Origin: a virus
Lineage: Duplodnaviria > Heunggongvirae > Uroviricota > Caudoviricetes
Virus record (IMG/VR): IMGVR_UViG_2690316227_000010
Location: 1 to 5,114 of that record
DNA: 5,114 bases
Direction: 5' to 3' (one strand)
The notes under the pieces are model-generated. The model saw nothing but the letters and a program-made list of their open reading frames with translations, was not told the DNA's origin and did not search any database. This document shows, piece by piece, positions 1-5,114 of this stretch. Position numbers and translations under genes: made by a program. Position 1 is the first letter of the stretch. Each line of letters begins with the position of its first letter.

Positions 1-1332
1 CTGGCCCTGTCCAGACTGAAAGGGGAAGAAAAAGAGCGTGCCCGGCTGGGGTATGCGGCGGATGACCTTGGTTTTGTGGGGGATTCGTATCAGGAGGCGA
101 GACAGCGTTATATCAGTAATGCTCTGGAAGCCTGGCGTAATAACGAGGCGAACAAACCTAAATCCCGGGGTGGAAAATCAGAGACGGAAAAAGCGGAAGA
201 CAGTTTTTCCCGGCTACTGAAGCAGCAGAAAGAGCAACTGGCACTGGCGGGTCAGAATACAGAGCTGGCGAAGCTGAAGTACCAGACTGCGCAGGGCGAA
301 CTGAAAACCCTGACGGAGATGCAGAAGCAGGAACTGCTGCGTAACGCGGCCCTGATTGACCAGCAAAAAATCCGGGAACAGTTGCGATCCCGGGAAGAGA
401 CCCTGAAGAATGATAATGTGGCTGCGCGTGCATCAAATGAAGCCGAACTGCTGGGGTACGGGCAGGGAGAACGAGCCAGGGAACGCATGCGGGAGTTGCA
501 GCAGATCCGCGACAGCTTCCGCCAGAAGGATGCGGACCTTCAGTCTCAGTATCAGACCGGGGATATCAGTGAGGATTTTTACAGACAGGCACGGGCACAG
601 AACGCGCAGTATCTGAGCGAACGCCTTAAGGACCAGGCAGCCTTTTATGCCGAATCGGATGCGCAGCGTGCGGACTGGCAGAAAGGCTTGCAGGAGGGGC
701 TCAGTAACTGGTTGGATAATGCGTCCGATTACGCCTCACAGGCAGCACAGCTTGCGACGGAGGGTATCTCAGGGATGGTGAATAACATCACGGAGATGCT
801 GAACGGAAATAAAGTGGAATGGCGCAGCTGGGCCTCATCAGTGCTGCAGGAAATATCAAAAGTTCTTATGAATGCCGCGATTGTCAACGGAATTAAGACG
901 GCGGCAAACGGTATGTCCGGTGCGGGAGGATTTCTCGGCAGCATTGGTGACTGGCTGGGCGGGGCGGTGGCCAATGCAAAAGGCGGCGTGTATACCTCGG
1001 CAAACCTGAGTGCGTACAGCAACAGTATTGTGGATACGCCCACGTACTTTGCCTTTGCAAAAGGGGCCGGGCTGATGGGGGAGGCCGGACCTGAAGCCAT
1101 TATGCCCCTGACGCGGGCGGCGGATGGCTCGCTGGGTGTGCGCGCGGTGGGTAGTATGTACGGCAGTGCGGGCCTGGTGTATTCCCCGGTCTACCATATC
1201 GCCATTCAGAATGACGGGACTAATGGCCAGATAGGGCCGGAGGCGGCAGGCAGTCTTGTGCAGCTGATTGACCAGCGGGTGCAGGCGGTGATGCTGTCCA
1301 TGCGACGTGACGGAGGAATGCTGAGTGGCTGA
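1..1332 (+). CDS. H: Tail tape measure protein, C-terminal portion (5' partial; ORF enters from upstream of window)
   Basis: Frame 1 is open from base 1 to TGA at 1330-1332, so the GTG at 76 in the ORF track is not the true start. Translation is Q/E/R/K/A/L-rich and coiled-coil-like (e.g. LKQQKEQLALAGQNTELAKLKYQTAQGELKTL), followed by a Gly/Ala-rich hydrophobic C-terminal segment, typical of tape measure proteins. It sits immediately upstream of M-L-K-I-J homologues. Confidence 0.9.
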   Translation: MALSRLKGEEKERARLGYAADDLGFVGDSYQEARQRYISNALEAWRNNEANKPKSRGGKSETEKAEDSFSRLLKQQKEQLALAGQNTELAKLKYQTAQGELKTLTEMQKQELLRNAALIDQQKIREQLRSREETLKNDNVAARASNEAELLGYGQGERARERMRELQQIRDSFRQKDADLQSQYQTGDISEDFYRQARAQNAQYLSERLKDQAAFYAESDAQRADWQKGLQEGLSNWLDNASDYASQAAQLATEGISGMVNNITEMLNGNKVEWRSWASSVLQEISKVLMNAAIVNGIKTAANGMSGAGGFLGSIGDWLGGAVANAKGGVYTSANLSAYSNSIVDTPTYFAFAKGAGLMGEAGPEAIMPLTRAADGSLGVRAVGSMYGSAGLVYSPVYHIAIQNDGTNGQIGPEAAGSLVQLIDQRVQAVMLSMRRDGGMLSG

Positions 1333-2374: not shown

Positions 2375-3118
2375 ATGACACAGACTGAATCAGCGATTCT
2401 GGCGCATGCCCGGCGGTGTGCGCCTGCGGAGTCGTGCGGCTTCGTGGTGAGAACGCCGGAGGGGGAGCGGTATATCCCTTGTGTGAATATCTCTGCAGAG
2501 CCGGAGGCGTATTTTCGTATTGCACCGGAAGACTGGCTGCGGGCAGAGATGCAGGGGGAGATTGTGGCACTGGTCCACAGTCATCCCGGTGGTCTGCCCT
2601 GGCTGAGCGAGGCCGACCGGCGGCTGCAGATAAAAAGTGCACTGTCCTGGTGGCTGGTCTGCCGGGGGGACATTCATAAATTCCGCTGTGTGCCGCACCT
2701 GACGGGACGGCGCTTTGCGCACGGGGTGACGGACTGTTACACGCTGTTCCGGGATGCCTACCATCTGGCGGGAATTGATATGCCGGATTTTGAGCGTGAG
2801 GATGACTGGTGGCGCAACGGCCAGAACCTGTACCTGGACAATATGGCGGTCACCGGCTTTTACCGGGTGCCCCTGTCCTCTGCACAGGCGGGCGATATTC
2901 TGCTGTGCTGCTTTGGCGCATCGGTGGCCAATCATGCCGCCATATACTGCGGCAACGGTGAACTGCTTCACCATCTGCCTGAACAACTGAGTAAACGGGA
3001 GAGGTATTCCGAAAAATGGCAACGACGAACGCATTCAGCCTGGCGTCACCGCCACTGGCACGCATCTGCCTTCACGGGGATTTGCAACGATTTGGCCGCC
3101 GCCTCAGCCTGTACGTGA
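2375..3118 (+). CDS. K: Tail assembly protein K (N-terminal JAB/MPN metalloprotease-like domain plus C-terminal NlpC/P60-like domain)
   Basis: 247 aa from ATG 2375, 10 nt after the L stop. Contains the JAMM motif HSHPGGLPWLSEAD (H-x-H-x7-S-x2-D) and, downstream, NlpC/P60-like catalytic residues (Cys in VTDCYTLF, His in ANHAAIY, HH in LLHHLP). No strong SD, so the start is probably translationally coupled to L. The open frame upstream to 2114 overlaps L and is not coding. Confidence 0.85.
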   Translation: MTQTESAILAHARRCAPAESCGFVVRTPEGERYIPCVNISAEPEAYFRIAPEDWLRAEMQGEIVALVHSHPGGLPWLSEADRRLQIKSALSWWLVCRGDIHKFRCVPHLTGRRFAHGVTDCYTLFRDAYHLAGIDMPDFEREDDWWRNGQNLYLDNMAVTGFYRVPLSSAQAGDILLCCFGASVANHAAIYCGNGELLHHLPEQLSKRERYSEKWQRRTHSAWRHRHWHASAFTGICNDLAAASACT

Positions 3119-3696
3119 ACACGGCAGCGGAAGCCATCCGTGCCCTGTCGATGCAGATGCCGGGCTTTCGCCGTCAGATGAACGAAGGCTGGTACCAGAT
3201 ACGTATTCGCGGTGAGGACACGGCACCGGAGGCGGTGTACGCCCGTCTTCACGAACCTCTGGGTGAGGGGGCGGTCATCCATATTGTGCCGCGACTGGTC
3301 GGAGCCGGAAAGGGCGGACTGCAGATTGTGCTGGGGGCGGCGGCCATCGTGGGGTCGTTCTTCACGGCCGGGGCATCAATGGCGTTATGGGGTTCAGCCC
3401 TGGCAGCCGGTGGTTTTTCTGCCACCACGATGCTGTTTTCACTGGGGGCTAGCATGATACTGGGCGGTGTGGCCCAGATGCTGGCACCGAAGGCAAAAAC
3501 ACCGGATTACCGCGCAACGGATAACGGTAAACAGAACACGTATTTTTCCTCACTGGACAATATGATTGCCCAGGGTAACCCGATGCCGGTGCCTTATGGT
3601 GAAATGCTGGTTGGTTCACGACGGATATCCCAGGACATCAGTACCCGTGATGAAGGCGGTGGCGGAAAGGTTGTGGTTATCGGGCGGCAGGGGTAA
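3016..3696 (+). CDS. I: Tail assembly protein I (N-terminal ubiquitin-like beta-grasp domain, Gly-rich hydrophobic C-terminal region)
   Basis: 226 aa from ATG 3016 with GGGAGAGG upstream (2997-3004). Starts 103 nt inside the 3' end of K in a different frame, the overlap architecture typical of lambda-like K/I pairs. N-terminus MATTNAFSLASPPLARICLHGDLQRFGRR..., then GxxxG-rich hydrophobic stretch (GAAAIVGSFFTAGASMALWGSALAAGG...). TAA at 3694-3696. Confidence 0.88.
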   Translation: MATTNAFSLASPPLARICLHGDLQRFGRRLSLYVNTAAEAIRALSMQMPGFRRQMNEGWYQIRIRGEDTAPEAVYARLHEPLGEGAVIHIVPRLVGAGKGGLQIVLGAAAIVGSFFTAGASMALWGSALAAGGFSATTMLFSLGASMILGGVAQMLAPKAKTPDYRATDNGKQNTYFSSLDNMIAQGNPMPVPYGEMLVGSRRISQDISTRDEGGGGKVVVIGRQG

Positions 3697-3728
3697 AAAG
3701 AATAAAACAATCCCGCAGAGTTGCGGGG
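3697..3728 (-). terminator. Candidate Rho-independent terminator oriented for the minus strand
   Basis: Hairpin CCCGCA (3712-3717) / TGCGGG (3722-3727), loop GAGT. On the minus strand it is followed by TTGTTTTATTCTTTTT (complement of 3695-3710). On the + strand the hairpin is followed by GACAGACAAAG (not U-rich), so it is minus-oriented. Abuts the I stop codon. Confidence 0.4.
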
Positions 3729-3739
3729 ACAGACAAAGA

Positions 3740-3749
3740 TTAACGTTAA
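3740..3749. repeat. Perfect 10-bp palindrome TTAACGTTAA; ATTAACG recurs at 3786-3792
   Basis: TTAACGTTAA equals its own reverse complement. Sits immediately before the AAGGAG at 3748-3753. Possible protein-binding site, or chance in AT-rich DNA. Confidence 0.15.
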
Positions 3750-3759
3750 GGAGTTATTT

Positions 3760-3864
3760 TTGTTTCTGGTGCTCGGGCAAAAAAACATTAACGCAGAGAA
3801 ATTATTAGCACCACAGTCAGTTTGTGAAAATGTGAAGATATTCAGAAGTTTTATTCCGTCATGA
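3760..3864 (+). CDS. Hypothetical small ORF (34 codons, TTG start) in the I-J spacer; speculative
   Basis: AAGGAG (3748-3753) lies 6 nt before TTG 3760. Frame is open to TGA 3862-3864 and would encode (M)FLVLGQKNINAEKLLAPQSVCENVKIFRSFIPS. Ends 2 nt before the + strand terminator hairpin. No homology assessable; TTG start and short length make this weak. Confidence 0.15.
   Translation: MFLVLGQKNINAEKLLAPQSVCENVKIFRSFIPS
3831..3846. promoter_or_regulatory. CRP-like motif TGTGA-N6-TCAGA (9/10 match to the TGTGA-N6-TCACA core)
   Basis: tgtgaagatattcaga at 3831-3846, flanked by AAAA on the left. An additional TGTGAA copy lies at 3823-3828. A single match in AT-rich DNA, so it could be chance. 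Confidence 0.2.
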
Positions 3865-3866
3865 TG

Positions 3867-3897
3867 CAGGCATCCTCCGGGATGCCTGTTGTTTTTG
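3867..3897 (+). terminator. Candidate Rho-independent terminator (+ strand): 9-bp stem, 4-nt loop, U-rich tail
   Basis: CAGGCATCC (3867-3875) pairs perfectly with GGATGCCTG (3880-3888), loop TCCG, followed by TTGTTTTTGTG (3889-3899). On the minus strand the downstream sequence is not U-rich, so the orientation is +. Lies 33 nt upstream of the J ATG. Confidence 0.55.
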
Positions 3898-3918
3898 TGC
3901 GTAACAGTTATCACAGTA

Positions 3919-3927
3919 AAGGGTGAG
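3919..3927 (+). promoter_or_regulatory. Shine-Dalgarno region for J
   Basis: AAGGGTGAG located 3-7 nt upstream of ATG 3931. Confidence 0.6.
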
Positions 3928-3930
3928 ACA

Positions 3931-5114
3931 ATGGGCAAAGGTGGCGGCAAGGCGCACACACCGCGCGAGGCGAAGGACAATCTCAAATCCACGCAGATGA
4001 TGAGTGTGATTGATGCGATTGGTGAGGGACCGATAGAAGGCCCGGTGAAGGGGCTGCAGAGTATCCTGGTGAACAAAACCCCGCTGACGGACACGGACGG
4101 CAATCCTGTGATACACGGTGTGACCGCGGTCTGGCGCGCCGGGGAGCAGGAGCAGACACCACCGGAAGGCTTTGAGTCCTCCGGAGCTGAAACCGGACTG
4201 GGCGTGGAAGTGACGAAGGCAAAGCCGGTAACGCGCACCATTACGTCCGCGAACATTGACCGCCTGCGGGTTACCTTCGGGGTGCAGTCACTGGTGGAGA
4301 CCACCTCAAAGGGTGACCGTAACCCGACGTCTGTCCGCCTGCTGATTCAGCTTGAGCGTGGTGGTAAATGGATGACGGAAAAGGATGTCACCATTAACGG
4401 CAAGACCACCTCACAGTACCTGGCGTCGGTGATTCTGGATAATCTGCCTCCCCGTCCTTTTAACATCCGGATGGTCCGGGAGACAGCGGACAGCACCACG
4501 GACCAGTTGCAGAATAAGACGCTCTGGTCGTCATACACCGAAATCATCGATGTGAAACAGTGCTACCCGAACACGGCGATTGTGGGGCTGCAGGTGGATG
4601 CGGAGCAGTTTGGCGGTCAGCAGATGACGGTGAACTACCATATCCGCGGTCGCATCATCCAGGTACCGTCAAACTATGACCCGGAAAAACGCACTTACAG
4701 CGGCATCTGGGACGGCAGCCTGAAACCGGCATACAGCAACAACCCTGCCTGGTGCCTGTGGGACATGCTGACTCACCCGCGCTACGGCATGGGAAAACGT
4801 CTGGGGGCGGCGGATGTGGACAAGTGGGCGCTGTATGCCATCGGGCAGTACTGCGACCAGATGGTGCCGGATGGCTTCGGGGGCACCGAGCCGCGGATGA
4901 CCTTCAATGCGTACCTGGCACAACAGCGTAAGGCGTGGGATGTTCTCAGTGATTTCTGCTCGGCGATGCGCTGTATGCCGGTATGGAACGGTCAGACGCT
5001 GACGTTCGTTCAGGACCGCCCGTCGGATGTGGTGTGGCCGTACACCAACAGCGATGTGGTGGTGGATGATAACGGCGTGGGGTTTCGCTACAGCTTCAGC
5101 GCCCTGAAGGACCG
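3931..5114 (+). CDS. J: Host specificity protein J / central tail fibre (tail tip), N-terminal ~394 aa; 3' partial, continues past window end
   Basis: Frame 1 is open from ATG 3931 to the window end with no stop, so it is missing from the ORF track. SD AAGGGTGAG at 3919-3927. N-terminus MGKGGGKAHTPREAKDNLKSTQMMSVIDAIGEGPIEGPV... and later ...TLWSSYTEIIDVKQCYPNTAIVGLQVD...AWCLWDMLTHPRYGMGKRLG... are characteristic of lambda-J-family proteins. Position directly after I agrees. Confidence 0.9.
   Translation, partial: MGKGGGKAHTPREAKDNLKSTQMMSVIDAIGEGPIEGPVKGLQSILVNKTPLTDTDGNPVIHGVTAVWRAGEQEQTPPEGFESSGAETGLGVEVTKAKPVTRTITSANIDRLRVTFGVQSLVETTSKGDRNPTSVRLLIQLERGGKWMTEKDVTINGKTTSQYLASVILDNLPPRPFNIRMVRETADSTTDQLQNKTLWSSYTEIIDVKQCYPNTAIVGLQVDAEQFGGQQMTVNYHIRGRIIQVPSNYDPEKRTYSGIWDGSLKPAYSNNPAWCLWDMLTHPRYGMGKRLGAADVDKWALYAIGQYCDQMVPDGFGGTEPRMTFNAYLAQQRKAWDVLSDFCSAMRCMPVWNGQTLTFVQDRPSDVVWPYTNSDVVVDDNGVGFRYSFSALKD

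Follow-up and report, generated by a model that had tools for sequence, protein, structure and literature searches.

A terminator-like hairpin between tail genes I and J of a lambda-like prophage, next to a minus-strand sRNA gene and with counterparts at the same junction in other siphoviruses

The window (the whole 5,114-nt stretch of DNA analysed here) covers the tail region of a lambda-like prophage. Pfam domains give the gene order tape measure C-terminus, M, L, K, I and the start of J, and the corresponding locus of E. coli O121 RM8352, which is 98.7% identical, carries the same gene annotation in RefSeq. Genes I and J are separated by a spacer of 234 nt, with the J start codon (ATG) at 3931, not 3932. 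The features of the spacer and its borders, together with the position of the U-tract in a homologous prophage, are as follows.

3016..3696, plus strand: tail assembly gene I, which borders the spacer upstream (Pfam Lambda_tail_I; RefSeq annotation of the O121 locus)
3700..3794, minus strand: predicted PasB/EcOnc22-like sRNA gene (homology to PasB and to the Sakai Sp11/14/15 spacers; fold)
3727..3712, minus strand: terminator stem of the sRNA, with a U-rich tail down to ~3700 (consensus scan)
3801..3828, minus strand: sigma-70 promoter-like site of the sRNA, TTCACA, 16 nt, AATAAT (consensus scan)
3831..3846, no strand assigned: CRP-like palindrome TGTGA-N6-TCAGA (TGTGA-AGATAT-TCAGA), between the sRNA promoter and the hairpin
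3866..3889, plus strand: terminator-like hairpin, 9 Watson-Crick pairs plus G3866·U3889, loop TCCG (fold, scan)
3889..3899, plus strand: U-rich tail TTGTTTTTGTG, where unmodified RNA polymerase would be expected to release the transcript (sequence; T-run kept in relatives)
3900..3930, plus strand: J leader with the Shine-Dalgarno-like AAGGGTGAG (sequence; three diverged leader types in relatives)
3931..5114, plus strand: 5' part of the tail tip/host specificity gene J, which runs off the window (Pfam FNIII-A_GpJ and Phage-tail_3; annotation)
~2,902,734 in NC_002695.2 (~2,902,599 in NC_002695.1), minus strand: equivalent of the U-tract in Sakai Sp15

Matches to lambda J or to the J of E. coli prophages, at 78-97% identity, also turn up in contigs of numerous assemblies from unrelated organisms (Streptomyces, Neobacillus, Shewanella, Bradyrhizobium, Chromatium and several MAGs). 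They almost certainly stem from lambda control DNA or from contamination with E. coli.

The stem of the hairpin consists of nine perfect Watson-Crick pairs on the plus strand (3867-3875 with 3880-3888), six of them G-C, and is closed additionally by G3866·U3889. The loop is TCCG (3876-3879), and the plus strand over 3866-3899 reads GCAGGCATCC TCCG GGATGCCTGT TGTTTTTGTG. In the tail, UUGUUUUUGUG, U occupies seven of the first eight positions after G3888, and the tract is broken by G at positions 3 and 9. The first-pass annotation had described a perfect 9-bp GC-rich stem with a 4-nt loop and a T-rich tail, 33 nt before J, and had proposed RNAfold scoring. The sequence bears out this description, with 31 nt (from 3899) or 33 nt (from 3897) between the tail and the ATG at 3931, and RNAfold gives -19.6 kcal/mol for 3855-3900, against -10.5 +/- 2.4 for shuffled sequences (z -3.86; 0 of 200 shuffles equal).

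The occurrence of this structure in the window is not random. In a scan of both strands for at least 9 Watson-Crick pairs, at least 6 GC pairs, a loop of 3-8 nt and at least 6 T in 8, the hairpin at 3866-3899 was the only site to pass, and an equally good hairpin with T-run arose in 1 of 1000 dinucleotide shuffles of the whole window, both strands included. It lies on the plus strand, which is the strand of H-M-L-K-I-J, and the reverse strand has no U-tract after the stem. The GC-rich stem and the 4-nt loop, which fall within the usual ranges of ~5-14 bp and 3-8 nt, the adjacent U-tract and the orientation with the late operon are those of an intrinsic terminator. Neither strand of the window had a match to an Rfam covariance model up to E = 1. 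A second terminator-like hairpin, GGCATGGT-GGTT-ACCGTGCC followed by TTTTTGTGG (8 bp, 5 GC), is found at 1527-1556 of the plus strand within the coding sequence of gene M, and may be a chance occurrence.

The spacer had at first been taken as empty. Homology indicates instead that its minus strand, at about 3794..3700, is a gene of the PasB/EcOnc22 sRNA family. Prophage PP6 of EPEC E2348/69 has an I-J spacer to which that of the window can be aligned from end to end. PasB, an 83-nt Hfq-dependent sRNA, is encoded there antisense to the tail genes, at NC_011601.1 1466343..1466261 (Pearl Mizrahi et al., PMC8550237, Table S6), and the probe used for its Northern blot, AATCCCGCAGTGATCGCGGAGCT (PMC8550237), corresponds to the plus strand of the sRNA terminator in the window. 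This terminator, CCCGCA-ACTC-TGCGGG followed by AUUGUUUUAUUC, lies ~75 nt downstream of the promoter-like site. Placing the 5' end from the position of the -10 element gives a predicted body of ~95 nt in the window; the -10 element of E2348/69 is a perfect TATAAT.

Homology over the full length also extends to the I-J spacers of Sakai Sp11, Sp14 and Sp15. EcOnc22/23/24 are Hfq-CRAC peaks in these Sakai spacers, run at ~85 nt on Northern blots and are destabilised without Hfq (Tree et al., PMC4104026, Table S2). Their published coordinates refer to NC_002695.1, and we determined the offset to NC_002695.2 as +142 at 1.27 Mb (from the StxS2 3' end and AsxR) and +135 at 2.93 Mb (from the StxS1 tR'). 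The corrected peaks fall on the PasB-like gene, at a distance of 22-82 nt from the stop codon of I; raw coordinates had put EcOnc22-24 over the hairpin on the antisense strand, a placement ruled out by this calibration. Published Sakai sRNA, Term-seq (Sy et al. 2020, PMC7547250) and CRAC coordinates are all shifted versus the current RefSeq version. A link between PasB and EcOnc22-24 was not found in PMC8550237 or PMC4104026, and the note on EHEC homologues in Table S6 of PMC8550237 is blank for PasB. AgvB was considered and dropped, as Rfam gives nothing at the spacers of the window, E2348/69 or Sakai; its only matches were in a control Stx2 locus (AsxR, STnc100 and tRNAs). The hairpin at 3866-3889 lies outside the sRNA, ~70 nt away and upstream of its promoter, and is not part of PasB.

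The palindrome at 3831..3846 matches the CRP consensus, TGTGA-N6-TCACA, at 9 of 10 positions. Its half-sites are constant in 33 of 34 spacer variants (one has TCATA) and the N6 varies. The distance to the -10 element of the sRNA, counted by hand in two variant types, is 24 nt, which puts the centre of the site near -44.5. The 'activating' and 'nonactivating' media of the PasB study reportedly differ in glucose content. A CRP-like site fits the higher PasB level in the 'nonactivating' than in the 'activating' condition (PMC8550237), and the PasB-like sRNA may be under CRP control, with this palindrome as the candidate site.

The hairpin might also terminate a short plus-strand RNA, as the first-pass annotation had suggested in its second explanation. 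Such an RNA (~50-90 nt) would be born in the spacer, for example divergently from the sRNA promoter region, and could bind Hfq. A hairpin with U-tail is the typical 3' module of Hfq-binding sRNAs, and the AT-rich promoter region of the minus-strand sRNA is 40-90 nt upstream. Against this, the consensus scan returned no promoter-like site on the plus strand of the window (by hand, hexamers match at 3-4 of 6 positions), the Sakai Hfq-CRAC peaks at these spacers are antisense only (EcOnc22-24, on the PasB-like gene), and EPEC RIL-seq names only PasB there among the entries listed, which is weak evidence. Moreover, the spacers of 18-40 nt before the hairpin in lambda, HK140, phiKO2 and others leave no room for a transcription unit. 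We therefore regard a plus-strand spacer RNA as improbable. Another candidate for a plus-strand RNA ending at the hairpin was HnrS (EcOnc10-12), a multicopy prophage sRNA of 66 nt; it was rejected, as it adjoins lysis genes and not the I-J junction.

The spacer is present in 1308 of 5426 complete E. coli genomes and also in many Stx1a, Stx2a and Stx2c phages. From 120 related loci we obtained 16 distinct versions of the hairpin, of which 11 were aligned. The stem stays paired in the 16 variants, and in the 11 aligned ones 98.2% of cells are paired versus 34-48% for slid partners. One pair is compensatory (C-G / U-A); a U-G intermediate occurs at this position, as does one C·A mismatch. The covariation score was equalled by 44 of 500 shuffles, and recent shared ancestry may account for part of the conservation. 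All 16 variants retain the T-run, and the J leader beyond it splits into three diverged types. To the left of the hairpin, several Stx phages have unrelated sequences in place of the sRNA body. Since a block of ~70 nt that ends in the hairpin stays ~90% identical despite this replacement, the hairpin is part of the conserved J-side flank of a variable cassette.

The hairpin stands at a mosaic joint, with variable sRNA bodies on its left and three leader types on its right, and could also be an inert inverted repeat, either a remnant of insertion or recombination or a protein-bound DNA palindrome with no role in RNA. The weak covariation statistics within the family would agree with this. The U-G intermediate and the compensatory C-G / U-A pair, on the other hand, fit pairing in RNA and not a protein half-site, and unrelated hairpins recur at the slot with T-runs and in late-operon orientation in at least seven lineages (see below), so that we consider an inert repeat very improbable.

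Terminators at the I-J junction are not restricted to this prophage family. In lambda, the hairpin AAACCGCC-TGCG-GGCGGTTT-TGTCATTT lies 18 nt past the I stop codon, just before the J ribosome-binding site, and bears no annotation in the lambda RefSeq record. The HK97/HK022/HK140 lineage has GGCCACC-TTCG-GGTGGC-T6-8 in 80 of 80 sampled loci, and the hairpin is kept in HK022 and HK97, which have extra DNA between the I-like gene and the hairpin. In phiKO2 (AY374448) the sequence is GGCCACC-TTGC-GGTGGC-T7, annotated by the depositors as 'putative terminator'. Further versions occur in Serratia phage Bonzee and in Pseudomonas phage BR178a. The hairpin of Escherichia phage AHS24 (NC_024784; Drexlerviridae, T1-like), AACCCGC-CTAGT-GCGGGTT-T5, is labelled 'rho-independent terminator' in its record, from TransTermHP/WebGeSTer. 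Altogether, terminators of unrelated sequence were found in at least seven lineages, always with the T-run after the stem and always in late-operon orientation, and the distance from hairpin to J start ranges from 16 to 65 nt. The survey of distant lineages comprised one to a few genomes each, apart from two sets of 80 loci.

No terminator is present in phages whose I gene touches or overlaps J (Providencia PSTCR8lys, Mannheimia 587AP2, Klebsiella VLCpiS8a, Dhillonvirus TheodorHerzl and Burkholderia phi644-2). A scan with the J protein of Serratia phage Bonzee gave one relative only, which has an AT-rich upstream region and no hairpin. Literature searches found no description of an I-J terminator for this prophage family or for lambda, and nothing relevant on terminators internal to late operons. 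As an argument for a terminator, the recurrence at the slot is stronger than the covariation within the family.

Two further spacer classes were seen among the relatives. In EHEC prophages of the PPompW type, the window hairpin is swapped for a strong AAAACCCCGGTATC-TGCT-GATACCGGGGTTT, ~100 nt before J. The spacer of PPompW_EH2246 (L138 440-783; also L005-L010) is identical to the PasB type up to ...TTCAGAATTTTTA and then unrelated; its hairpin is different, stronger and looks two-way, and the recombination joint is just before the site of the window-type hairpin. In the other class (L031 650-1500, from IMG/VR; 14 similar loci), a PasB-like minus-strand terminator directly after I is followed by an insertion of ~850 nt with small ORFs and a strong minus-strand hairpin at 833..810. 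This class has no plus-strand terminator near J.

The hairpin of the window is most likely a real intrinsic terminator for transcription that reaches J from upstream, given its anatomy, the U-tract that relatives retain, its unchanging orientation and its repeated independent occurrence. The proposal that a terminator gates J can be retained as far as the full Rho-independent anatomy, the late-operon direction and the conserved U-tract are concerned. Our main reading, to which we assign a probability of roughly 55%, is that a genuine Rho-independent terminator faces J, is bypassed by Q-modified polymerase and constitutes the constant right-hand edge of a cargo slot. Polymerase without the antitermination modification would pause on the U-tract as the GC-rich hairpin of 9-10 bp forms, the transcript would be released at ~3895-3899, and J would be left untranscribed. 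Q-modified polymerase from the late promoter would ignore the terminator, so that J would be made in lytic growth. From the above we infer termination, read-through and a purpose of this kind, and the terminator would be one case of a punctuation that recurs in lambda-like siphoviruses and their relatives wherever the tail-assembly genes are set apart from J in this way.

In lambdoid phages, Q-modified polymerase reads through the terminators of the late operon. The window itself contains tail genes only; the homologous prophage Sakai Sp15 has an annotated antiterminator Q and tR'. Since relatives carry a Q antiterminator, Q-dependent read-through into J would be the natural expectation, and lytic transcription must pass the hairpin because J is essential for the virion. 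In RNA-seq of an EPEC lysogen, baseMean was 15 for J and 4.8 for I, values which are not length-normalised and are both near background. J reads were not lower than I reads, and we counted this against termination before J.

The purpose that had been suggested for the hairpin, insulation of J from upstream transcription in a lysogen, is not the whole story, as analogous I-J terminators are found in AHS24 and lambda. Drexlerviridae (T1-like) phages are known as virulent and are not known to have a Q-type system. The terminator in AHS24 shows that I-J terminators do not everywhere go together with antitermination bypass, and it weakens the case for insulation if this phage is strictly lytic. Insulation of the lysogen is then one option only, which fits temperate phages with cargo in the slot.

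The same observations bring up a role in lytic growth at the post-transcriptional level. The hairpin could be a 3'-end stabiliser of the tail-assembly message, a weak attenuator or a J leader element (for translation or stability), and would then tune J dosage against that of the upstream genes, in place of halting unmodified polymerase in the lysogen. AHS24 shares the architecture, and lysogen insulation would be useless there if the phage is strictly lytic; lambda shares the hairpin without known prophage-expressed cargo upstream; and at 16-65 nt from the J start the hairpins are close to the ribosome-binding site. A pure stabiliser, however, needs no U-tract, yet all variants and lineages examined retain the T-run directly behind the stem, and the MFE fold predicts that the hairpin and the Shine-Dalgarno region of J are unpaired with each other. 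We consider a lytic role of this kind a serious alternative, though on balance unlikely.

A more speculative idea, which we regard as quite improbable, is that the hairpin and the antisense sRNA gene make up a paired RNA switch. Late transcripts of an induced prophage that end at the hairpin, or are cut there by processing, would contain the full complement of the PasB-like sRNA together with a hairpin and U-tail for Hfq, and such an 'I 3'-UTR' RNA would sponge or destroy the prophage's own sRNA. Conversely, when a relative superinfects a lysogen, the sRNA of the lysogen would base-pair with the incoming I-J leader and reduce J expression. The model is STnc6030 of the Salmonella prophage BTP1, an antisense RNA that cuts expression of a superinfecting relative (PMC7067206). 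If this were true, the I-J terminator would be a functional part of a switch and not plain punctuation.

The main reading, a terminator facing J at the border of a cargo slot, can be compared with known systems. Like lambda tR' and the terminators downstream of it, the hairpin is a stem-loop with U-tract in sense direction within a long late operon; unlike tR', it is ~20 kb downstream of the late promoter and not adjacent to it. The annotated terminators of phiKO2 and AHS24 have the same I-J position, orientation and anatomy, and differ from the window in their unrelated sequence, their shorter spacers (65 and 80 nt) and the lack of an sRNA gene in the spacer. PasB and EcOnc22-24 share the intergenic spacer with the hairpin and differ in being on the opposite strand, ~70 nt off.

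Morons are cargo with its own promoter and terminator between conserved phage genes (Juhala et al. 2000; Cumby et al. 2012, PMC3594210). The I-J junction resembles them as a cargo slot: the window has a PasB-like sRNA there and Stx phages have other sRNA bodies, HK022 carries ~480 nt of extra DNA and a further class ~850 nt. Unlike a moron terminator, the window hairpin does not end the cargo, which is on the opposite strand and has its own terminator at 3727..3712, whereas the analogous hairpin of HK022/HK97 does follow the inserted DNA. A further difference is that the I-J hairpin persists in phages with an empty slot.

The hairpin is real but ordinary and opens no new mechanism. The picture of the I-J spacer is corrected, as a slot for an Hfq-dependent prophage sRNA of known type that is bounded on the J side by a terminator. 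With the modest sample available, only the generalisation is mildly new, namely that an I-J terminator is a fixed border of the cargo slot across distant siphoviruses. Its recurrence in lambda, HK97-like, N15-like, T1-like and Pseudomonas siphoviruses suggests a common punctuation between the tail-assembly block and the exchangeable tip/fibre block, which would be of use in prophage annotation and in predicting which cargo is insulated from the late genes.
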